64,000 bases of DNA from Pirellulales bacterium (GTDB lineage Bacteria > Planctomycetota > Planctomycetia > Pirellulales > Lacipirellulaceae). The stretch's first letter is position 1, and each line of letters opens with the position of its first letter. The translations under genes were made by a program, and so were the position numbers. Below the pieces are notes generated by a model. The model ran no database searches, was not told the DNA's origin, and saw only the letters and a program-made list of their open reading frames with translations. The stretch lies in contig JBFWSG010000004.1 of assembly GCA_050248495.1 (NCBI GenBank), positions 23,686 to 87,685 on the forward strand, written 5' to 3'. Shown one piece after another: positions 10,528-33,735 of this stretch.

Positions 10528-11319
10528 ATGAAGTGGAACTTTTTGGGAGCGCTCATGATGAGCATCGCCCTGGCGAGCCCAAGTTTTGCGACTTGCTGCT
10601 TGCTGGACAAGATGCTCGGGGGCGGCTGCGGATGCTGCGAAGAGGCAAGCTGCAGCTGTTGTGAAAAATCGTGCTGCTGCGAGGAAGCGTCCTGCGGTTG
10701 TGAAGACAGCTGCTGCTCCTCGTGCGGCTGCGGCGGCGGTGGCTGCTGCGTGCTCGATCGGCTGAGCGGCTTGTTCAGCTGTCATCACGGCTGCGGCTGC
10801 TGCGAAGCCAGCTGCGGTTGTGAAGAAGCTTCTTGCTGTGCCGAAGCCTCGTGCGGCTGCGAAGATAGCTGCTGCTCGAGCTGCGGTTGCAAGAAGGGCT
10901 GCTGCCTGTTGGACGGCCTGTGCGGCATGTTCAAGTGTCATCACGGCTGCGGCTGCTGCGAAGCCAGCTGCGGTTGTGAAGCTTCTTGCGGTTGCGAAGC
11001 CTCGTGCGGCTGCGAAGATAGCTGCTGCTCGAGCTGCGGCTGCAAGAAGGGCTGCTGCCTGCTCGGTGGCCTGTGCGGCCTGTTCGGTCACAATCACGGC
11101 TGCGGCTGCTGCGAAGCCAGCTGCTGCTGCGAGCCCAGCTGCGGCTGTGCCTCGTCGAGCTGTGGTTGCGAAGGTGGTGGCGACAGCGCCGCTCCTGCCG
11201 AAGAAGCTGCTCCTGAGGAGAACGCTTCGGCTCGCATGATCCCGCCGTTGCCGATGGCTGATCCGAATGCCTCGATCAGCCGCGAGCGCGACGTCGTCCG
11301 CACCAGCTTCACCCGCTAA
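10528..11319 (+). CDS. secreted, extremely cysteine-rich (about one-third Cys) tandem-repeat protein, metallothionein-like
   Basis: A GGAGA Shine-Dalgarno precedes the ATG at 10528. The signal peptide is MKWNFLGALMMSIALASPSFA. Three ~50-aa repeats follow (CHHGCGCCEASCGCE(E)ASC..EDSCCSSCGCKKGCCLL.GLCG.F) with CxC/CC motifs, Glu and His, and a Cys-free acidic tail. Confidence 0.8.
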   Translation: MKWNFLGALMMSIALASPSFATCCLLDKMLGGGCGCCEEASCSCCEKSCCCEEASCGCEDSCCSSCGCGGGGCCVLDRLSGLFSCHHGCGCCEASCGCEEASCCAEASCGCEDSCCSSCGCKKGCCLLDGLCGMFKCHHGCGCCEASCGCEASCGCEASCGCEDSCCSSCGCKKGCCLLGGLCGLFGHNHGCGCCEASCCCEPSCGCASSSCGCEGGGDSAAPAEEAAPEENASARMIPPLPMADPNASISRERDVVRTSFTR

Positions 11320-15398: not shown

Positions 15399-16856
15399 CT
15401 ACTCCCACGCCTGCTTGATCTCCACCAGTTTCTCCCGCTCCGGCAGCTCCTTGTAGTGCGGGTCGAGCGGGTAGCACCCCGAGATCAGCCCGTTCCGCGG
15501 CGCCGTCGTGCAATCGCTGAACGTCCGACAAATCCGCTTGCGGCTCAGCGGCTTCCCCGCGAGCGTATCCGCCGGCAGCTCCGGATACGAAAGCACCATC
15601 CGCCCCAGCCCGACGAAATCGACCCAACCCTCGCGGACCACGGCCTGCCCCACGTTCGGCAAATACTCCTGCAGATACGAATACCCCGTCCCCACGAGCG
15701 GCAGCGACGGCACGCTCCGCTTCACGTCGCGCACCGCCTGAATCTGCCGGCACACGCCCACGAGCGGATCCTCCGGCGGTAGGTACCCATCGGTCGGCGG
15801 AAAGATCGCCGGCCGCTGCATGTGCGGATTGTAGTACGGGCTCCCGCACGTGAGATTCACCATCGCCACGCCATGCTGCATCAACATGCGGACGAGTTGC
15901 AGCGGTTCCGCCAAATCCATTTGCAGCGGATCGTCCGCCGACACGCCGAACCCAAACTGGTACGGCAACAGATTCTCAAAATCCATCGGCCGCCCCAGCT
16001 GCCGGCCGCTCGCAAATGGCACCGAGTCGAACACGCTCAGCCGCACGCCGACGATTAACTGCGGCAATTCCTCCCGAATCCGATCGATGATCGTGAGCAT
16101 CAGCCGCGCCCGCCCGGCCAGGTCGCCGCCAAACTTCCCCGGCCGCGTCCGCGCGCTCAAAAACTCGTGCAGCAAATACCCGTGGCAGGCCTTCACGTCG
16201 ACAAATGCAAAACCCACCTCCGCCGCCAGGTGAGCCGCCCGCACATAGTCGTCCGCAAGCACCTCCAGCTCGGCATCCGTGAACACCATCCGGTCGTCGC
16301 CGGGCGCGAGATGATACTTCTCGGCCAACAGCGGATGATGGTACGCAATCCGCGGCTCGAACTTCTTGTGATCGTTCGGCTTGCAGAACCGCCCGCTATG
16401 CGTCAGCTGCAGTCCCACCAAGAGCCCATCGAGCGTTCCGAACGACTCCCGATGCGCCGCCCGCAAGCCGTCGAGTAGCGCCGCGAGCCCCGCGCGATTG
16501 CTCTCCACTGCCAATGTCTGATTCGGATTCGCCCGCCCGTCCGGCCGCACGGCCGCCGCCTCGCCGCCCCAGATCAGCTTCGCCCCGCTGAGCCCGAAAT
16601 TCCGCCACCGCCGCAACGTGTGCTCACTCGGCGAACCGTCCGTGTTCGCGTCCCAGCCCTCCATCGCATGAATGCACCAGCGGTTCGCCACCTCAAACCC
16701 GGCAACCGAAATCGGCGCCGCCAGCGGCGACCCGGCTTCGCGGGAGAGCACCCGCTCATCCACCGGCAGCTCCAGCCCCAACTCCGCAAGCCGCGCGCGC
16801 AGCGCCCCCACGTCCCGCATCTGGGCCACCTTGGGATAACTCACCGCCTCAGCCAT
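15399..16856 (-). CDS. NADH:flavin oxidoreductase, Old Yellow Enzyme family
   Basis: CHGYLLHEFLS is the OYE active-site motif (HGAHGYL). The TIM-barrel length and layout fit, and a C-terminal Cys-containing extension is present. Confidence 0.85.
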   Translation of the reverse strand: MAEAVSYPKVAQMRDVGALRARLAELGLELPVDERVLSREAGSPLAAPISVAGFEVANRWCIHAMEGWDANTDGSPSEHTLRRWRNFGLSGAKLIWGGEAAAVRPDGRANPNQTLAVESNRAGLAALLDGLRAAHRESFGTLDGLLVGLQLTHSGRFCKPNDHKKFEPRIAYHHPLLAEKYHLAPGDDRMVFTDAELEVLADDYVRAAHLAAEVGFAFVDVKACHGYLLHEFLSARTRPGKFGGDLAGRARLMLTIIDRIREELPQLIVGVRLSVFDSVPFASGRQLGRPMDFENLLPYQFGFGVSADDPLQMDLAEPLQLVRMLMQHGVAMVNLTCGSPYYNPHMQRPAIFPPTDGYLPPEDPLVGVCRQIQAVRDVKRSVPSLPLVGTGYSYLQEYLPNVGQAVVREGWVDFVGLGRMVLSYPELPADTLAGKPLSRKRICRTFSDCTTAPRNGLISGCYPLDPHYKELPEREKLVEIKQAWE

Positions 16857-16961
16857 AGCGCCAACTTTCTCGCAGATTCATCAACGGGTGCCGCCGCCAA
16901 ACTCTACATTCTAAACCCCCGCCGAATCTTCCACTAACCCACGATTCCAGCCACCCAACGG

Positions 16962-16977
16962 ACTGGTCGCTTCAGCG
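16962..16977. repeat. variant copy of the GCTTCAGC-loop hairpin element (GGTCGC-TTCA-GCGACC)
   Basis: It belongs to the same family as 17039, 18013 and 18249. Confidence 0.5.
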
Positions 16978-17038
16978 ACCAATAACACCCGCCACACTTC
17001 AATCGTCCACACCCGCTATACTACCCCCACCACCCCAG

Positions 17039-17060
17039 GCGAGCTCGCTTCAGCGAGCGT
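17039..17060. repeat. hairpin repeat element GGCGAGCTCGC-TTCA-GCGAGCG (copy 1)
   Basis: The element occurs as three near-identical copies (17039, 18013, 18249). Each has a GCTCGC/GCGAGC stem with a TTCA loop. Confidence 0.7.
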
Positions 17061-17064
17061 GTAG

Positions 17065-17166
17065 CTCCACCCTCAACCCTCCACCCTCAACCCTCCACCC
17101 TCAACCCTCCACCCTCAACCCTCCACCCTCAACCCTCCACCCTCCACCCTCCACCCTCCACTCCAC
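17065..17166. repeat. C-rich tandem minisatellite: (CTCCACCCTCAACC)x5 then (CTCCACC)x3
   Basis: It lies directly upstream (within 5 nt) of the ATG at 17171. Confidence 0.8.
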
Positions 17167-17170
17167 ACTT

Positions 17171-18013
17171 ATGCACATCCCCTCGCACTGGACCCGCGGC
17201 ACCGCCACCATTCGCCTGCCCGATGGCCGCGAGTTCCCGCTCACCGTCTGGGGCTGGGCCAACGACAAAGCCGCCGCCCAACGAATTGCCGCCGAGCGCC
17301 TGCAGCGTGTCCAGGATCGGTTCCGCTCTGGCGACTGGCCCGATTGGTACGCCTACGGGTCGCGCCCGCTCCGCGAGGAAATCCTGCAAACCTTCCACGC
17401 CGACGGCGCCGCCGAACCCGTCGCCATCGTGACCCGCAACGGCTACGGCACCCAAGTCCTCAACACATCCTCCCTGCTCTTTCTCGACATCGACCGGCCG
17501 CTGCCCACCTTGCGACAGCGCCTCCCGCGTTGGCTCGGCGGCAAACCCGCCCCCACCGGCGAAGAAATCCTCTTCAGGCTCCGCCGCGCGCTCGAAGCGC
17601 ACGCGCCCACGACATTCCGCATCTACCAAACCGCCTGGGGCTGGCGCGTTGCCGCGGTCGACCGTGAATTCAATCCCACCAGCGACTCGACCCAATCGCT
17701 CATGCGCGCGACCGACACCGATCCGTACTACATGCGCCTCTGTCAGGTGCAGCAAAGCTTTCGCGCCCGATTGACCCCCAAACCGTGGCGCTGCCACGTC
17801 GCCCCGCCAACGTCCCAATATCCCCGCACGGACGAACAGGCCCAGCGCCAATTCGCCGCCTGGCTACGTGACTACGAGCAAAAAACAACCGGCCACGCCA
17901 CCTGCCGCTACCTCGAAACGGTCGGCACGAGCAAACCGAATTCAACCCTCGCGTCACTCCTGGAACTCCACGACACCGTCACCCGCAGCCACGAACCACT
18001 CCCGCTGGCCTAG
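17171..18013 (+). CDS. hypothetical protein (possibly a 5' portion of a longer gene interrupted at 18011)
   Basis: The 280-aa ORF has good GC3 bias. It ends at a TAG formed at the junction with hairpin repeat copy 2. Confidence 0.65.
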   Translation: MHIPSHWTRGTATIRLPDGREFPLTVWGWANDKAAAQRIAAERLQRVQDRFRSGDWPDWYAYGSRPLREEILQTFHADGAAEPVAIVTRNGYGTQVLNTSSLLFLDIDRPLPTLRQRLPRWLGGKPAPTGEEILFRLRRALEAHAPTTFRIYQTAWGWRVAAVDREFNPTSDSTQSLMRATDTDPYYMRLCQVQQSFRARLTPKPWRCHVAPPTSQYPRTDEQAQRQFAAWLRDYEQKTTGHATCRYLETVGTSKPNSTLASLLELHDTVTRSHEPLPLA

Positions 18014-18038
18014 GCGAGCTCGCTTCAGCGAGCGGGCG
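18013..18038. repeat. hairpin repeat element copy 2 (GGCGAGCTCGCTTCAGCGAGCGGGCG)
   Basis: It starts within the stop codon of 17171..18013. Confidence 0.7.
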
Positions 18039-18245
18039 ACTCAGCATCTGACACCCGCCACCTTCCGCACCTGCCGCCTCGAGTACGTGAAGCAAGCCCG
18101 CAACCCGCTCACGACCTCCCAGTCCCACCGTCTGCAACAACTCGACTACCGCCTGCAACTCGTGGCCGAAGGCCAAGCCTCCGCCGCGACAATCCGCAAC
18201 GAAGCCCTCGATACCCTCGACGCCTTCAATTGGTCCCTGCCCTAA
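18039..18245 (+). other. coding-like ORF segment without an ATG; it may be the displaced C-terminus of the 17171 gene or a small GTG-initiated gene
   Basis: Frame 0 is open from 18012 to the TAA at 18243-18245 with strong GC3 bias (TQHLTPATFRTCRLEYVKQARNPLTTSQSHRLQQLDYRLQLVAEGQASAATIRNEALDTLDAFNWSLP). Deleting 22 nt of the hairpin element (18012-18033) joins it in frame to the upstream gene. Confidence 0.4.
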
Positions 18246-18248
18246 TGC

Positions 18249-18274
18249 GGCGAGCTCGCTTCAGCGAGCGGGCG
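18249..18274. repeat. hairpin repeat element copy 3
   Basis: It is identical to copy 2 and lies 3 nt after the TAA at 18245. Confidence 0.7.
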
Positions 18275-18753
18275 TCCTGCCCCAAGACTTCGCCACGCTC
18301 GGATCACTCTTCGTCGCCAACCCCAACCACGCCCTGCGCTCGCCGCCATAGGCCGTTCGCACCATCAGGATTTGCGCCTCGACGATCGCTGGCGCCACGT
18401 AAGCACAATGCGCCAGCACAATCTCACGCAGCACGACTCGAACCAATCGCTGGCGAAACCGTCTCACGACTTCCATCGCATCTCTTCCAAAAAGGGTTCC
18501 AGCATGCAGGGGAAATACGCCACATCGCCTCAAGAGTTTCCCAGCCCCGTTCACAGCTCCTGTCCCTCATCCCAGGCCCGGGATTGTAGCCGGGCTTTAT
18601 GTCCACCAACTCCATACAATTCCGGGGAGGTCGAACGATAGTCGCAAATGCTGGCGTGCTTCCGTCAGGTGCTTGCTTCCATCGACCAGGGCCCGATAAT
18701 CTGCGCTCACAATCAATCGCCTCCTCCAGTTACTCCTCCTTCCGAGCGCGAAC

Positions 18754-19644
18754 GTGGGACGTCTTACATTTCTGGTGGTCTTCACGAGCAATGCATTGTT
18801 GCTGCCCACGGCCTGTTTTTCAGCCGTCTCGAAAATTGACTCACCGTCACAAATCGAAAGCGGCACCACGATTTCGTTCGACGGCATCCCGGATTTGACG
18901 GTTCTAAATACCTTGTATCAGAACCAAGGTGTCACGTTCACACGCGATGACGCGGGGCCAATCTTCGCATTTGACGTTGTCGCGATCGGTCGCATAACCA
19001 CGTCGCCGCGAAACGTCCTCGCGACGATTCAGGCCGGAAGTGCCTCTGGCCCGACCACCCATCTCAACGTGCTGACGACGGCGCCGGCCCAAGCGATCGG
19101 AGCCTACTTTGGCAATGATCAGAACAATCCCGACTTCAAGTCGATTCGCCTTTCGGCATACGGGCTCGCTGGCGAATTGCTGGGATCCGTCGAGTCCGCC
19201 GCAAACAACAACATCCACGTCGACCAGTTCATTGGACTACGGAGCGACTCGCCAATCGGCAGAGTCCGCTTCCAGAATTTGAATGCGACCGGGGGATTGG
19301 CGGGCGGCTACTCAGTGGTCATCGATGACCTGGTGTTCTCCTCCGCGGCGCCAAATGTCCCTGGCGATTTCAACGCCGATCAATTCGTGGACGCCGCGGA
19401 TTACACGACTTGGCGCGACCACCTGGGCACCAGCTTTAACCTCAACGGCAACGGGAGTGAAGAGGGCGCGAGCGCGGGCGTGGTCGACCTGGCCGACTAC
19501 GCCTTGTGGACGCAACATTTCGCGCAGCCTGGCAGTGCCAGTCACGGCAGCATTGTGCCCGAGCCCATCGCCGTGTTGACAATGTCGACGGCTTGTTGCT
19601 TCGTATGCTCAGTGCGCCGGCGCCAAATCAACCACATGAGGTAG
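18754..19644 (+). CDS. PEP-CTERM-anchored secreted protein with dockerin-like Ca-binding repeats
   Basis: It has a signal peptide and two dockerin-type segments (GDFNADQFVDAADYTTWRDHLG and VVDLADYALWTQHF). The C-terminus VPEPIAVLTMSTACCFVCSVRRRQ is a PEP motif plus a transmembrane helix and an Arg cluster, i.e. an exosortase sorting signal. Confidence 0.7.
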   Translation: MGRLTFLVVFTSNALLLPTACFSAVSKIDSPSQIESGTTISFDGIPDLTVLNTLYQNQGVTFTRDDAGPIFAFDVVAIGRITTSPRNVLATIQAGSASGPTTHLNVLTTAPAQAIGAYFGNDQNNPDFKSIRLSAYGLAGELLGSVESAANNNIHVDQFIGLRSDSPIGRVRFQNLNATGGLAGGYSVVIDDLVFSSAAPNVPGDFNADQFVDAADYTTWRDHLGTSFNLNGNGSEEGASAGVVDLADYALWTQHFAQPGSASHGSIVPEPIAVLTMSTACCFVCSVRRRQINHMR

Positions 19645-19848
19645 ACGAAGCGCAGCCGCTAACAGCGGAGGGGGAGAATCGAACTCGACCGGCGCAGGGG
19701 CCGATCCGGGCTGGGCTCATAAGGCTCGTTGCATCACCAGACGCGGGCCGCTCTCCTAGGCTGGGAGTCATAAGCACCAAAAAGCATCCACCAGATGAGA
19801 AACAGAGACATAGGGGAATAGCGACAAACCTGCTCTACCTGAGGTTGG

Positions 19849-20097
19849 CTATTCGTGGCTAAAGAACTCTTTGTCAGAAACGTTGTCTTTTTTGGACAAC
19901 TTAAACTTCTTGCGGACGCCAGCCACGTAACAATCTAGGATCTCGTCCTCTTTCTTCTGCTTGGGAATCGGATACGAGAAGATATTCCCGTTGATGTTCC
20001 GCTTGAACATCGTGTGGCTGCCCTTGCCGCGCGCGGTCTCTTCCCAGCAATCATAGTGCGATAGAATGCGGCGGAGCTTTCTTAGCGAATACGGCAC
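19849..20097 (-). CDS. hicA: HicA-like mRNA interferase toxin
   Basis: LRKLRRILSHYDCWEETARGKGSHTMFKR..YPIPKQKK matches the HicA consensus (GW....KGSH..F.....P.HKK). It has an approximately 30-aa C-terminal extension. Confidence 0.6.
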   Translation of the reverse strand: MPYSLRKLRRILSHYDCWEETARGKGSHTMFKRNINGNIFSYPIPKQKKEDEILDCYVAGVRKKFKLSKKDNVSDKEFFSHE

Positions 20098-20106
20098 GCG
20101 GACATT

Positions 20107-20529
20107 TTACACCGCGCACGTACTTCCACCAGCGTATTCCCGATACTGGCATTCCTCGATCTCGAACGAATCGATATGCCGTGGAGCGCTAACTTCCTTG
20201 AGCTGCAATTCGCCAATGGCGATGTTCTTCCCGGCGGCAAACATCTCAAAAAACTTGCCGTCAGCCGGGCTGAAAAGATTGGCCGGATTATCGTGCTCGA
20301 TTGAAGCCTCGATTTGAAGAGCGATTGCATCGCCCAATTGATCCAGCGCTTCCTCGCGGGTATCCCCGTCACCCATCAAATCGAATTCAAGGCAATGCGC
20401 AACCCAAGCGTTCCCTTCCTTGTAGAAGACGATGCGGATCGGCAATCGCATTGACTCTGCCATGAACTTCCTTACACGCGGCGCAACAAAACGGCCCGAC
20501 CTGAACGGCTGGGCCATGATCGTTTCCAT
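20107..20529 (-). CDS. hicB: HicB-like antitoxin (UPF0150/HicB N-terminal domain)
   Basis: PIRIVFYKEGNAWVAHCLEFDLMGDGDTREEALDQLGDAI is HicB-like. The start is likely METIMAQ at 20529, with an AGGAAA Shine-Dalgarno; the track start is 20568. Confidence 0.55.
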   Translation of the reverse strand: METIMAQPFRSGRFVAPRVRKFMAESMRLPIRIVFYKEGNAWVAHCLEFDLMGDGDTREEALDQLGDAIALQIEASIEHDNPANLFSPADGKFFEMFAAGKNIAIGELQLKEVSAPRHIDSFEIEECQYREYAGGSTCAV

Positions 20530-20686
20530 CTTTCCTGGTTTGACATCCCGATCATCCTGACAGTCCATTTAATCGGGTCGCTAATGCAACTATATCCAAC
20601 CAAACGGCCGAAAGCAAAAGACTGGTCATGCCCCCCAGAAGTGCCGTCAAATTGATGAAAACACCGAGAAATACGCGGCCGGCGCC

Positions 20687-20726
20687 CGCGCGGATAGCTT
20701 TCAAAGCTTTGAAAGCTATCCGCGCG
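20687..20726. promoter_or_regulatory. 40-bp perfect palindrome CGCGCGGATAGCTTTC-AAAGCTTT-GAAAGCTATCCGCGCG
   Basis: Two 16-nt arms around a palindromic 8-nt core were verified by eye. It lies about 160 bp upstream of hicB and about 340 bp upstream of the HNH gene. Confidence 0.75.
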
Positions 20727-21062
20727 CACACGATCTGTCAACGGATGGCGGGTGCCAGAGGTCAAAATGAGGGCGCCAACTCCGTTGTAAATCACGAGCT
20801 CGGCCGCTATGATGACGCCCGTAGAACGAAACGCTGGCCTCTGGGGTGTTGCACTCGCCACCCCAGGGGCCAACTTCGTTTTTCGACATTGACGAAAATG
20901 CGATAGCACTGTTAGACTGTTCACGTTGTAGGAGTCCTGTCCGAACGGATTCGAGCGTTTCGTTCTACAAGCCTCTCGCTCAGCCGCCTCTGGCTCGCAC
21001 TCCTGGTATTTGTTTCCGCGCACCCGGTGCGCGCTGACATCCTTTTTAAAGGAGTGCATGTC

Positions 21063-21359
21063 ATGTATTGCAATTGGACGCATGAGGAACGGTCTGCTGT
21101 GTGGTTCAAGGGTCGCGCTGTCCCCGGCGTCGATGGCGACAAGTGGCGTCTCGACGTTTGCGGAGCTTGGATCGGCTGGCAGTTCTACGGCAACCGCAAC
21201 TCGCAGTATGGATGGGAAGTGGACCACATTGATCCACGCGGCGGCGACGGGCTTCACAATCTTCAGCCGCTCCAATGGGAAAACAACGTAGCCAAAGGCG
21301 ACGGACACTTGGCATGCGTTGTTACGGCATCGGGCGTGGAGAACGTTGCCGTTCGTTAG
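21063..21359 (+). CDS. HNH endonuclease, small stand-alone
   Basis: An AAAGGAG Shine-Dalgarno lies 7 nt upstream of the ATG at 21063. The HNH motif is YGWEVDHIDPRGGDGLHNLQPLQWENNVAKGD. Confidence 0.7.
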   Translation: MYCNWTHEERSAVWFKGRAVPGVDGDKWRLDVCGAWIGWQFYGNRNSQYGWEVDHIDPRGGDGLHNLQPLQWENNVAKGDGHLACVVTASGVENVAVR

Positions 21360-21567
21360 TCCTTTCCCGCGTTCCCTCCGGATGACAGAGCGCGCTCGTG
21401 GCTAGATCGAAGTCCGCGCGCACAAACACTCTGTCGTCCTCTGGGACGGCATCCATAATCCGGCGGATGCACTCACAGAGTGCGTCCGCCTCTTCGTTTC
21501 CAAGGGTCAACGGGTAGTCCTGCTGCCGAACGCTTTCAAGCAGCAATCGGATTGTCGCGTTATTCAA
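21322..21567 (-). CDS. hypothetical small protein (81 aa)
   Basis: An AAGGAG Shine-Dalgarno lies 4 nt upstream of the ATG. It converges on, and overlaps, the 3' end of the HNH gene. Confidence 0.4.
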   Translation of the reverse strand: MNNATIRLLLESVRQQDYPLTLGNEEADALCECIRRIMDAVPEDDRVFVRADFDLATSALCHPEGTRERTNERQRSPRPMP

Positions 21568-21727
21568 TGGTGCTCCTTAGCCATCCAGCGCGGTCGCCCG
21601 GAATGCCAGGCGAAGGGGGCGGGATGGTCGCAGGGCCGCAGAATCGCGGCAAGACCGCAGAGACGCACTCGGCGTGCCGGCGGCGACATTGTGGTAAGCT
21701 GGGCGAAATTCCGCCGGGGGTCCGACT

Positions 21728-21782
21728 CGCACACTTACATCCAGCACCACCTCGCTTTGGGTGGTGCTGGATTAAGTGTGCG
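21728..21782. terminator. long hairpin with a 23-bp stem and one bulge, directly downstream of the 21788..22432 gene
   Basis: cgcacacttaCatccagcaccacc-tcgctttg-ggtggtgctggattaagtgtgcg. Its left arm is part of a 39-bp direct repeat shared with 25788-25825. Confidence 0.55.
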
Positions 21783-21787
21783 GGGAT

Positions 21788-22432
21788 TTACGCGTGCCGA
21801 TAGCGTAGGTCGGGTATTCGGACGCCATAGCCAGCGCAGACATCGCACTCAGCTTCTATGCGCCCGAACTTATGGCCAGTGCCCTTGCATATCTGGCATT
21901 TGGGATAGTGGGACAATTCACCGGGAAGCTCGCCGGTGCCACCACACTTGCTGCAAATAGCTTCTATGCGATTCCATTTCAGACCAGAGCCTTTACACAG
22001 AGGGCATCTCATGGGCGGAATCGAATCTGCCGGATCGTTGCTTCCCGTTTTGCCTTCACGCACCATTCTTCGGTGAAGCATGAAATCGGCGATGGTTGCT
22101 GGTGTAAATCGCGGGATTTTAGGGAGGGCGGTAGACTTCACTACTGTGGTAATGGTCGCTGGCGATGGCGAAGCTGTAACTCCGTGAAATGTTTCCAGAA
22201 GTCCCCGCAATTTCGGAAGATTGACAACGACAATGATCGTCAGCCCAAGTAGGCAAAGTCCGGTTCGTACGATGTCATGGCTAAGAATCGTTGCGACAGC
22301 GTTGAACGCCATCCCCCAATTCCGGATGTCATCCGGCAGGCCACCCAAGCCAATAATACCAATTACAGTACCTAGCACGTTCCCTACTCGGCGCACGTTG
22401 CGCCACGGTGGTACGTTCCAATCGACAGCCAT
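21788..22432 (-). CDS. membrane protein (2 predicted transmembrane helices) with four DnaJ-type CXXCXGXG zinc-finger repeats
   Basis: The repeats are CPLCKGSG, CSKCGGTG, CQICKGTG and CDVCAGYG in the C-terminal 80 aa. The transmembrane helices are VLGTVIGIIGLGGL and LCLLGLTIIVVVNL. GC is about 52%. Confidence 0.6.
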   Translation of the reverse strand: MAVDWNVPPWRNVRRVGNVLGTVIGIIGLGGLPDDIRNWGMAFNAVATILSHDIVRTGLCLLGLTIIVVVNLPKLRGLLETFHGVTASPSPATITTVVKSTALPKIPRFTPATIADFMLHRRMVREGKTGSNDPADSIPPMRCPLCKGSGLKWNRIEAICSKCGGTGELPGELSHYPKCQICKGTGHKFGRIEAECDVCAGYGVRIPDLRYRHA

Positions 22433-22518
22433 GCCATGCTCCTACGACTTGACGCGCGCAGCCGTAGGCCATACCATGCAATCACCTAGATTGTGCATGG
22501 CCTACGTGGTCATTCAAA

Positions 22519-22551
22519 AGCTGACGGCTCCACCCGTCAGCTTTTTTGTTG
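22519..22551. terminator. hairpin plus T-run (agctgacgg-ctccac-ccgtcagct-ttttttg)
   Basis: The 9-bp stem lies between the zinc-finger membrane gene and the transposase. It is palindromic and could function on either strand. Confidence 0.45.
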
Positions 22552-22601
22552 CGTGAATTATATCGACTCTCTGCACAAAGCTACAGTGGCGGGGGCACCA
22601 C

Positions 22602-23561
22602 CTAGTCCGCCATCACATTCTCAATCATTTCTCGCACCGACCACACCTTTGTTGCAACGCCGTGGGCAACGGCCGGCGTCAGCCCTTTCAATGTCTTGTG
22701 TTGACGGCAATAGTTGTAATGACAGAAGTACACGGCCAGCGCGGCACGGTGGTTGTTCCACTTCTTTGAGAAGCAGTAGGTCAAGCGGCCCATGCGCTTC
22801 ATGTGGGTGCGGATGCTGCCGTTCATTCGCTCAACGTGCGAGGTGCATATCTGATCTTGTTGGAATGGCGTGCCGTGCATCGGGGTCCGGCTGGCCCCTA
22901 TTATCCGAGCCGGTGAGTACCGGCGCTGGTCCTCGTAGACATTGACGCCGTATATCTTTTGCATCACGCCGTGGTCGACGCGGTGTCCAAGCTGCTTTTT
23001 GATTTCGCTTGGATAGCTCCGCCAGCCGTCGCTACTAACGTGGAAGTGACCGAACGTGGCCCGGTCCAGTTTGGCGATGAACTGCTCGGTGTGCTGCTGG
23101 CTGCGGCGGCCCATGTGCCAAGTAATGAGCAGCTTTGATTGGCGGTCGATGGCGGTGTAGCAATAGCTGTCGCCGCAGCCGCCAACCATCTTCTGCGCTT
23201 TTGTGGTCGCGTTTTTTGCTAAAATAAATTGCCAAATTTCGTCCACCTGGGTGTCGCTGACAAACACGTCCTTAATGTGTTCGGCCATGTACTTTTCGCA
23301 GTGCTCGCCGAGCATCGTGAGCAGCGAGAGGATCGTCATTAAGTCGGTGCCGGTGAAGCGGGCGGTGGCGCGAACATTCATGCCCTCGCACAGCAGCTCG
23401 ACGATCTTGGCGGCTTGCTCAACGCCGATCCGCATGCCGCCCAGCATGGCGGTGGATTCGGTCCAGGACGCGCCGCAGCTCTTGCAGCGGTAGCGGGTGG
23501 CCCCGGCCTTAGTTTTCCCATTCGTGCGGCGGTTCTCATGCTGACAGACGGCGGCAATCAT
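22602..23561 (-). CDS. DDE transposase, IS1595-family-like
   Basis: An N-terminal zinc ribbon (RYRCKSCGASWTE) is followed by a DDE-like core (DEIW..., AIDR, SDGWRSY). The C-terminal motif is YFCHYNYCRQHKTLKGLTPAVAHG. Confidence 0.75.
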   Translation of the reverse strand: MIAAVCQHENRRTNGKTKAGATRYRCKSCGASWTESTAMLGGMRIGVEQAAKIVELLCEGMNVRATARFTGTDLMTILSLLTMLGEHCEKYMAEHIKDVFVSDTQVDEIWQFILAKNATTKAQKMVGGCGDSYCYTAIDRQSKLLITWHMGRRSQQHTEQFIAKLDRATFGHFHVSSDGWRSYPSEIKKQLGHRVDHGVMQKIYGVNVYEDQRRYSPARIIGASRTPMHGTPFQQDQICTSHVERMNGSIRTHMKRMGRLTYCFSKKWNNHRAALAVYFCHYNYCRQHKTLKGLTPAVAHGVATKVWSVREMIENVMAD

Positions 23562-32985: not shown

Positions 32986-33735
32986 TTACTTCGTGTCGTG
33001 CTCTTTGCACCAGGCGATCATTTGATCGACGGTCATTGACTTCTTGTCGATCGGCCCGGATGGCGCTTTGGCGGCGGGGGCTGGTGCCGCGGGGGCTGGT
33101 TCGTCGGCCGGCGCTTCGGCTGCGGCCTCTTCCACCGGTTCTGGCTCCGCTGGCGGTTTCGCTGCGGGGGCCGGTGCGGCTTTGCCTGCCGCGCCGCCAG
33201 CTCTCGCGGCGGCGAGCATGTCGGCGACGCTCATCTTCGAGCGGTCGACCTTGGCGGGGGCGGCGCCGGGGGCTTTGGGTGCTGGGGCAGGTTTGGCTTT
33301 TGCTTCCCCGCCCGCTGAAGCTCCCTCGCCGCCTGCCGGTTTGGCGGGGGCCTTCGCGCCTCCGCCGGAGCGGAGCGCGGCGAGGATGTCGGCGGTGGAT
33401 TGCTTCGCACCGCCGGTCGCCGCTGGTTTTGCGGCGGGCTTGGCCGCCGGCTTTGCCGCCGCGGCCTCCTTCTTGGCGGGGGCTTCCTTGGCGGGCGCTT
33501 CTTTGACCTTGGGAGCGGGCGGCGTGTCGACCACCTTCAGGAACGCGGGGTCGATGTCATACCAGCCGATGTTGAGGTGATAGTCGTTGAACTCGACCAG
33601 GGCGCGGCCGCTCATGTTGACCGTCTTCACCGTGCCATACGTGTCGCGGAAGCGGGCCAGCTCGGGCCGCGAGCCGTCGACCACCACGTACTTATCCGTG
33701 TACTTCCGCTTGAGCTCGTCAATCAGGTCGACCAT
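32986..33735 (-). CDS. hypothetical protein with a globular N-terminal domain and an Ala/Pro/Lys-rich low-complexity region
   Basis: The short motif [SM][VT]AD[MI]LAA[AL]R[AS]GG recurs twice ([26 protein letters not shown]), with a related terminal [23 protein letters not shown] repeat is present. The mirror + strand ORFs are rejected as GC artefacts. Confidence 0.55.

Follow-up and report, generated by a model that had tools for sequence, protein, structure and literature searches.

A dispersed REP-like hairpin family in Lacipirellulaceae/Pirellulales, with copies inside tRNA synthetase genes and just past stop codons

The closest known kind of element to the hairpins described here is the REP, intragenic REPs included. 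By definition, a REP carries the tetranucleotide GTAG (or CGTC) at one end of its palindrome (PMC3733652), and intragenic REPs that lie in frame have been documented in genes for tRNA synthetases and repair proteins (Di Nocera et al. 2013, PMC3733652). The hairpins of this study share with REPs a G+C-rich imperfect palindrome of 20–40 nt with a short loop, an occurrence as singles, clusters, and inverted doublets, a frequent position just past stop codons, oriented like the upstream gene, and the presence of some copies in frame in genes for tRNA synthetases and DNA metabolism. They differ from REPs in that the GTAG/CGTC tag is absent from both strands, that the copy number is low (tens per genome), that half or so of the copies, if not more, lie within genes, as opposed to a small minority of REPs, that existing codons are overlain with no residues added, and that copies are strongly conserved at orthologous sites with compensatory changes in the stem. 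Rickettsia palindromic elements (RPEs) are situated in surface loops, are retained across species, and reach tens of copies per genome. Like our element, they are palindromic repeats found in frame in housekeeping genes (PMC3733652). However, RPEs are ~100–150 nt long and are true insertions of 30–50 residues, whereas the present element has 24 nt, i.e., eight codons. Added residues of the RPE type were absent from the Fmt sites tested, and CysRS site 1 was ambiguous in this respect. Uptake sequences (the USS of Haemophilus and the DUS of Neisseria) likewise overlie genes without the gain or loss of bases, favor certain reading frames and parts of proteins that tolerate change, are conserved between related species, and also form inverted pairs after genes. 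A short motif that overlies coding sequence without indels and prefers certain frames is common to uptake sequences and our element, but uptake sequences number in the thousands, are not themselves hairpins, and show no stem covariation. MITEs are likewise short, non-coding, and repeated. This class was rejected because the element has only 24 nt, no internal sequence bounded by terminal inverted repeats, no target-site duplication, and no empty sites; an alignment of 85 copies contained neither conservation beyond the 24 nt nor duplicated flanks.

The element was detected in a 64-kb stretch of a Lacipirellulaceae genome, referred to below as the window, for which the first-pass annotation had reported a 26-nt hairpin in three copies. 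These copies are real: the 26-mer GGCGAGCTCGCTTCAGCGAGCGGGCG has perfect matches at 18013–18038 and 18249–18274 and a match with three mismatches, every one at the 3′ end, at 17038–17063, all on the + strand, and no copy occurred in 100 dinucleotide-preserving shuffles. The reported starts at 18013 and 18249 were right, and that at 17039 was one base off (17038). In terms of the 24-nt unit defined below, copy 1 (17038..17061, + strand) agrees at 23 of 24 positions, its 3′ GGG being replaced by GTG, a variant that is also present at L060 and L071, and the covariance model scores it at 39.4 bits (E = 6e-7). It is located in a divergent intergenic region, ~110 nt 5′ of the ATG of a gene that we call ORF A. 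Copy 2 (18013..18036, + strand; 24/24; 44 bits with the covariance model) is identical to copy 3 over 26 of 26 bases, and its first base, G, is the final base of the TAG stop codon of ORF A. Copy 3 (18249..18272, + strand; 24/24) starts 3 nt past the stop codon of the next reading frame, as had been noted, and marks the end of synteny with L001, the locus of the closest relative outside the source MAG; ~250 nt further downstream, the G+C content changes from 0.65 to 0.55. A fourth, decayed copy was found on the − strand at 33307..33330 (31.2 bits with the covariance model, E = 5e-5), within an Ala/Pro/Lys-rich ORF (32986–33735, − strand). Its sequence, GGC GAG GGA GCT TCA GCG GGC GGG, is in frame as GEGASAGG; three stem pairs are broken, and the loop and flanks are intact. 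A search of 16500–18800 against Rfam 15 (E ≤ 10) gave nothing meaningful, and a promoter and terminator scan of the region found nothing. An intrinsic terminator was rejected because there was no terminator-like site in 16600–18800 and the hairpins are followed by GGGCG, and a CRISPR array was rejected because there are at most three exact copies per 8-kb locus, with irregular spacing.

The position of copy 2 had led to the proposal that it splits a gene. The observations behind this proposal were largely sound: copy 2 begins in the TAG of ORF 17171–18013, the downstream frame 0 stays open to the TAA at 18243–18245 without any ATG, and deletion of 18012–18033 fuses the two frames, although the fused product has 350 aa and not the 358 aa given. 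A stable hairpin thus overlaps a stop codon, followed by a coding-like frame at an offset of +1, as would be expected if copy 2 were either a MITE-like mini-insertion that interrupts one 350-aa gene or a bypass or frameshift recoding site that joins the two frames. The first-pass annotation had itself suggested that orthologues ending at the position of the ORF A stop would speak against a split, and this is what was found. We used the hypothetical fused 350-aa protein as the query and obtained 1,315 homologues, 120 of which were listed. Among those listed, 115 were 272–292 aa long, and all but two matched exactly the first 80% of the query, i.e., ORF A alone. They came from Planctomycetes, Gammaproteobacteria, and Betaproteobacteria, so that homologues from several phyla stop at the same residue, and no listed orthologue runs past the stop of ORF A. 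In L001, where ORF A is 88% identical, a separate 96-aa gene with its own ATG (ORF B) is located 3′ of ORF A. A DNA alignment of the window with L001 showed that 135 nt are missing from the window, with the junction between 18054 and 18055, and that this deletion took the start of ORF B and its first ~35 codons. The coding-like stretch therefore lacks an ATG because the 5′ end of ORF B was removed, and what is left (18055..18245, + strand; 63 codons plus TAA) is the 3′ two-thirds of that gene. Furthermore, the intergenic spacer of L001 has a diverged hairpin, GCGCTTCTCGCACCCGCGAGCTGCCAA, at the site of copy 2, with 27 nt against the 26 nt in the window, so copy 2 does not represent a net gain of sequence. 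Judged from these alignments, the split is refuted and a mini-insertion or recoding site at copy 2 is scarcely credible: ORF A (17171..18013, + strand) is a complete 280-aa gene of a widespread family, and the stretch behind it is a truncated neighbor, which in the window would be either a pseudogene or the source of a 52-aa product that starts from GTG 18087. For annotation, this means that ORF A should be entered as intact and the ATG-less stretch as a truncated neighbor gene, and that the hairpins should not be taken as gene disruptions. Two more distant relatives of ORF A (L006 and L008) have no ORF B, and neither the remnant nor the full-length ORF B had a significant match in Pfam or NCBIfam.

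No significant match to Pfam or NCBIfam was found for ORF A, either. An AlphaFold model built with 46 homologues had a pLDDT of 83, and in the FLDID motif D106 is invariant and D108 nearly so. The predicted fold has weak matches to AEP primase/PrimPol and dsRBD-like folds, which weakly suggests that ORF A is AEP primase/PrimPol-like. By analogy with the RepB′ primase and its ssiA/ssiB hairpins, the local hairpins could then be cis sites for ORF A, within a small mobile or replicative module. The density of the hairpins (four in 1.3 kb around ORF A, against approximately one per 100 kb or more elsewhere), the weak fold matches, and the break in G+C content and synteny just past copy 3 would fit such a module, which we nevertheless regard as very improbable.

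The hairpin belongs to a family that is apparently undescribed; our literature search for the element sequence or the encoded peptide found no paper. In the alignment of 85 copies, the conserved unit is exactly 24 nt, GGCGAGCTCGCTTCAGCGAGCGGG, and is preceded by a weak cC, giving the consensus flanks cCG-GGCGA...GGG-(c/g). It is composed of 5′-GGCGA, a 6-bp stem (GCTCGC/GCGAGC), a TTCA loop, and GGG-3′, and its predicted folding energy is −14.1 kcal/mol. When one genome per species was scanned, the exact 20-mer core was found in 81 copies at 73 loci of other genomes, which bears out the earlier view of a repeated element, one with numerous copies elsewhere. Nearly all carriers are MAGs of Planctomycetota, Pirellulales, Lacipirellulaceae, or Bythopirellula, and the three richest contain 29, 15, and 13 exact copies. 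The window and the loci L001–L081, with ~8 kb around each copy, comprise 680 kb in all. In 618 kb of these loci, the numbers of copies with 0, 1, 2, 3, 4, and 5 mismatches were 67, 25, 10, 4, 5, and 3, respectively, and among perfect hairpins with a 6-bp stem and a 4-nt loop in the 680 kb, the TTCA loop occurred 101 times and the next most frequent loop 15 times. Sixty-eight copies at unrelated sites are identical across all 24 nt. Several loci have clusters of three or four copies in 3 kb, head-to-head doublets are found in L030 (5123−/5150+) and L022 (2390−/2415+), and the 5′ half of the element is partially duplicated in tandem in L058 and L065. All genomes are MAGs, some of them long-read bins with frameshift errors (e.g., L040 and L066). 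An assembly or adapter artefact was rejected because the same in-frame sites recur in MAGs of different studies, built from Illumina as well as from long reads. A 450-nt repeat in L058, L061, and L070 also carries the element, and its Rfam search gave only spurious miRNA-like hairpin matches.

We analyzed the placement of the copies relative to genes, which were called with a crude rule based on ORFs and G+C content by codon position. By this rule, at least 64 of 102 copies fall within long ORFs whose G+C pattern is that of coding sequence. At least 41 of the 102 are in sense frame 0, where the element is read as GGC GAG CTC GCT TCA GCG AGC GGG (G-E-L-A-S-A-S-G); the other intragenic copies comprise 13 in the remaining two sense frames and 10 in antisense. 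The host genes encode CysRS (two sites, one directly before KMSKS), IleRS, Fmt, the tail of FtsK (two sites), an AddB-like nuclease, PabB, an NAD(P)HX dehydratase, and an HlyD-like protein. Among the extragenic copies, at least seven, including copy 2 of the window, lie 0–35 nt past the stop codon of the upstream gene and have the same orientation as that gene. Where two genes converge (L033 and L055), each copy faces its own gene, and therefore the orientation of the copies follows transcription and not replication. A motif at the peptide level was rejected because the copies are identical as DNA and contain GCT and TCA, which are rare codons, in genes whose GC3 is near 0.8. The excess of sense frame 0 may partly reflect peptides that are tolerated; the antisense peptide PLAEASS seems equally benign, yet it is 5-fold rarer. 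One RNase HII-like gene contains both a sense copy and an antisense copy, the latter read as PLAEASSP.

Similar flanks placed 36 of the 81 exact copies in 15 groups, 14 of which span different species, and at least 33 of the 81 are at orthologous sites of different species; the exact-match scan behind these counts favors unchanged copies, and only the CysRS and Fmt sets were gathered irrespective of the element. The divergence at 4-fold degenerate sites was 28–32% among three CysRS genes and 40–55% among five IleRS genes. In these same genes, the element is identical at 22–24 of 24 positions, and the differences concern the last base or one compensated stem pair. The stem also varies in a coordinated manner. 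The variant GCCCGC/GCGGGC occurs in exact form at five sites, in addition to near-variants, and other compensated stems are GCGTGC/GCACGC, GTCCGC/GCGGAC, and GGTCGC/GCGACC. Across 28 distinct variants, 92.9% of the cells are paired, and both partners have changed in three of the six pairs (10 cells); the observed covariation score was reached by none of 500 shuffles. G.U versus A.C mismatches among the variants were too few to discriminate between the two strands. Changes that look compensatory could also arise without selection, through templated correction of quasi-palindromes.

The pairing is also visible as covariation between amino acids. In 120 CysRS orthologues, the residues at the third and seventh positions of the octapeptide covary as L-S, P-G, V-T, and A-A, with 4, 7, 7, and 9 occurrences, respectively, at site 1 and 7, 4, 2, and 14 at site 2. 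These positions correspond to the stem pairs C7:G20 and T8:A19, and the DNA of L036, L082, and L163 agrees with this assignment, in a DNA-level comparison that was small (~6 close relatives among the matches listed). At orthologous sites in aminoacyl-tRNA synthetases, Fmt, and FtsK the hairpin is identical across species, and we consider the element a clean natural case in which nucleic-acid structure constrains protein sequence.

The genome-organization proteins offer a further comparison. The parS, matS, and Noc/SlmA sites likewise overlap coding sequence and are shared between species. The element could, in a similar manner, be bound at the DNA level, whether as a palindromic duplex or as an extruded cruciform, by a protein that organizes the chromosome or acts in replication. 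Tens of copies per genome that overlie genes without indels and are conserved at orthologous sites would fit this idea, and GCGAGCTCGC is a perfect 10-bp palindrome. Nevertheless, the covariation of the stem points to structure rather than particular bases as what is recognized, the orientation at convergent gene pairs follows gene direction, and copies are clustered within 1–3 kb, so we consider a site of this kind improbable.

The Fmt genes show the element superimposed on coding sequence and not inserted into it. Among 120 Fmt orthologues, the loop site reads GELASAS-G on the same eight codons that encode PSANAIP-G or GDVAATP-G in relatives that are 76–80% identical. At the N-terminal site, a form with the P-G stem is used in another frame, G GCG AGC CCG CTT CAG CGG GCG GG, to encode ASPLQRAG, which aligns without gaps with the conserved PSPVKVLA of the real E. 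coli gene. Here, L163 and L165 have CTT CAG CGG and the hairpin forms, whereas L164 encodes the near-identical ASPLQRSG with CTG CAA CGC and the hairpin is broken, so that formation of the hairpin depends on particular synonymous codons. Because the motif in Fmt is written on existing codons without an indel, it is not a MITE-like insertion, in agreement with the near-equal lengths at the site of copy 2, and this part of the earlier interpretation was given up. In CysRS, the short forms at site 1 lack ~17–20 aa and not eight. No clean empty site of 24 nt was found at the sites compared (difference of ~17–20 aa at CysRS site 1 and 0 aa in Fmt).

A stronger version of this observation would be that the motif is not inserted at all. 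A signal would be written over existing sequence by point mutation or short templated patches, under selection on the sense strand and at tens of sites per genome, in essential genes and at gene ends alike, and would force the covariation in CysRS and Fmt and rewrite the SPVK of Fmt. We offer this only tentatively and think it rather doubtful. If it were true, the hairpins would represent a new kind of intragenic cis-element “regulon,” with a hairpin-binding factor in planctomycetes.

The main rival of a hairpin that acts in the transcript is a selfish REP-like repeat with no host function, which was spread or re-homogenized by a RAYT, another HUH transposase, or short-patch templated conversion and is kept where it is harmless. 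The size, G+C-rich stem, tetraloop, and dispersal of the element fit REPs, as do the clusters and the REP- or REPIN-like inverted doublets, which are head-to-head in L030 and L022 and tail-to-tail in L033 and L055. The documented in-frame REPs (PMC3733652), the 68 copies that are identical over 24 nt at unrelated sites, and the tandem duplications of the 5′ half in L058 and L065 point in the same direction. However, no RAYT-like ORF was found in the 680 kb (~8 kb per copy) with tblastn and a single distant query, E. coli RayT (best E = 1), and the GTAG/CGTC tag is missing. A selfish origin also has to be reconciled with at least 33 exact copies (of 81) that different species share at orthologous sites and that are not strain-specific, with a decay slower than the neutral rate, with the lack of a clean empty site, where the two Fmt sites represent replacement rather than insertion, and with the strong bias to the sense strand. 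We therefore consider a selfish repeat possible, although on the unlikely side. If it is correct, the family would be REP-like yet spread without the hallmarks of RAYTs, and it would replace sequence instead of inserting into it.

Our best guess, to which we give an even chance, is that the element is a hairpin of the sense-strand transcript that is under selection. This reading is based on the sense bias, the orientation that follows the gene at convergent pairs, and the position on or after stop codons, together with conservation above the synonymous rate and covariation of the stem with a fixed loop and fixed single-stranded flanks. In coding regions, in leaders, and at or just behind stop codons alike, selection would preserve the ability of the motif to fold on the sense strand, and the hairpin would act in the transcript, either by being recognized by a protein or by blocking exonucleases. 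The whole of this, i.e., an old, vertically inherited, dispersed REP-like family of Lacipirellulaceae/Pirellulales that is under sense-strand selection and acts in the transcript, is in our estimation evenly poised between right and wrong. What is shown is the family, with its distribution, placement, conservation, and stem covariation, and that no gene is split; the action at the RNA level, and its nature, we infer solely from the bias in strand and the location behind stop codons. In E. coli, Liang, Rudd and Deutscher reportedly found in 2015 that REPs within ~15 nt of a stop codon stall terminating ribosomes. In the window, the hairpins would flag the 5′ leader of ORF A as well as the 3′ ends of both ORFs, A and B, and they may modulate mRNA stability or translation termination there, as E. 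coli REPs near stop codons reportedly do. A general transcript signal leaves the three copies in 1.3 kb beside an AEP-like gene unexplained. If a protein that reads the hairpin exists, the family would constitute a post-transcriptional or single-stranded-DNA signal in a phylum for which almost nothing is known about such control.

Two further repeats are located beside copy 1. A tandem repeat, CTCCACCCTCAACC, in 6.7 units (17065..17158, + strand), lies in the interval from copy 1 to the ATG of ORF A; L001 does not have it. Upstream of copy 1, the hairpin GGAC-TGGTCGC-TTCA-GCGACCA (16962..16985, + strand; −11.7 kcal/mol, z = −4.6) had been recorded as a variant of the same element. The similarity is genuine in part: the 12-mer core TCGCTTCAGCGA recurs at 16967–16978 within the 7-bp hairpin TGGTCGC-TTCA-GCGACCA, so that the TTCA loop and the inner stem TCGC/GCGA are common to both. 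The covariance model of the main element scores the core of this hairpin alone (E = 0.09), and the 3′ outer arm has decayed. By its sequence, we assign this hairpin to a second family, as a truncated member, and not to the main 24-nt family; the full form of the second family, GGACTGGTCGC-TTCA-GCGACCAGTCC, with an 11-bp stem, is present at L028:3088.

In cysteinyl-tRNA synthetase genes (CysRS) at two other loci (L166:10001-11821 and L083), the first site of the 24-nt hairpin element carried the stem variant that encodes Ala at peptide positions 3 and 7, and this copy appeared to be interrupted immediately after the TTCA loop. The additional 24 nt, GAC TTC GGC GAG CTC AGT CGA GCC, included another GGCGAGCTC and could represent a nested copy or a product of slippage. 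At L065 and L058, the 5' half of the element was partly duplicated in tandem. In the copy at L035:1461-1484, the loop was inverted (GCTCGC-TGAA-GCGAGC) and the flanks were normal, as would be expected of a loop flip by template switching at a hairpin or cruciform.

The element also occurred at least three times in one genome (JANNTD01) within a repeat unit of approximately 450 nt (L058:4150-4850, L061:3350-4040, and L070:1300-1990, the last on the minus strand). This unit comprised approximately 330 conserved nt 5' of the element and a long hairpin (ggcacgaaaag.cacaagaa...) 3' of it; a search of the unit against Rfam returned no family, only spurious miRNA-like matches. A bacterial class A RNase P RNA (292 bits) was located at L061:2834-3290 on the plus strand, approximately 400 nt from an element copy. 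Two further element-bearing contigs (L022 and L062) came from CAXMSB01, a metagenome-assembled genome labelled as the gammaproteobacterium Granulosicoccus sp. The IleRS gene of L062 was 77–82% identical to the IleRS copies in Bythopirellula and other planctomycetes, and these contigs are probably contamination of the bin.

ORF A (window 17171-18013) is one of over 1,300 related proteins of approximately 280 aa each (including P0001-P0120), a family for which there was no annotation in Pfam or NCBIfam. Identity between the planctomycete and gammaproteobacterial members was approximately 50%; D106 (in FLDID) and H267-D268 were invariant, and the predicted fold bore a weak likeness to AEP primases. 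A perfect 14-nt tandem repeat (CTCCACCCTCAACC × 6.7, window 17065-17158), with a 7-nt sub-period of CTCCACC, took up the space that separates element copy 1 from the ORF A start codon (ATG). This repeat was not present in L001, the relative whose ORF A is 88% identical. A 153-nt tandem repeat (window 10741-11147; 2.5 copies, 88% matches), which contained nested 18-nt repeats rich in GCTGC/TGCGA, was unrelated to the hairpin element.

Synteny of the window with L001 ended at copy 3. Approximately 250 nt beyond this copy, the G+C content fell from approximately 0.65 to approximately 0.55 (window 18500-23000), and an ORF with a weak match to HicA toxins was located at window 19849-20097 on the minus strand. 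An acquired segment may have its edge here.
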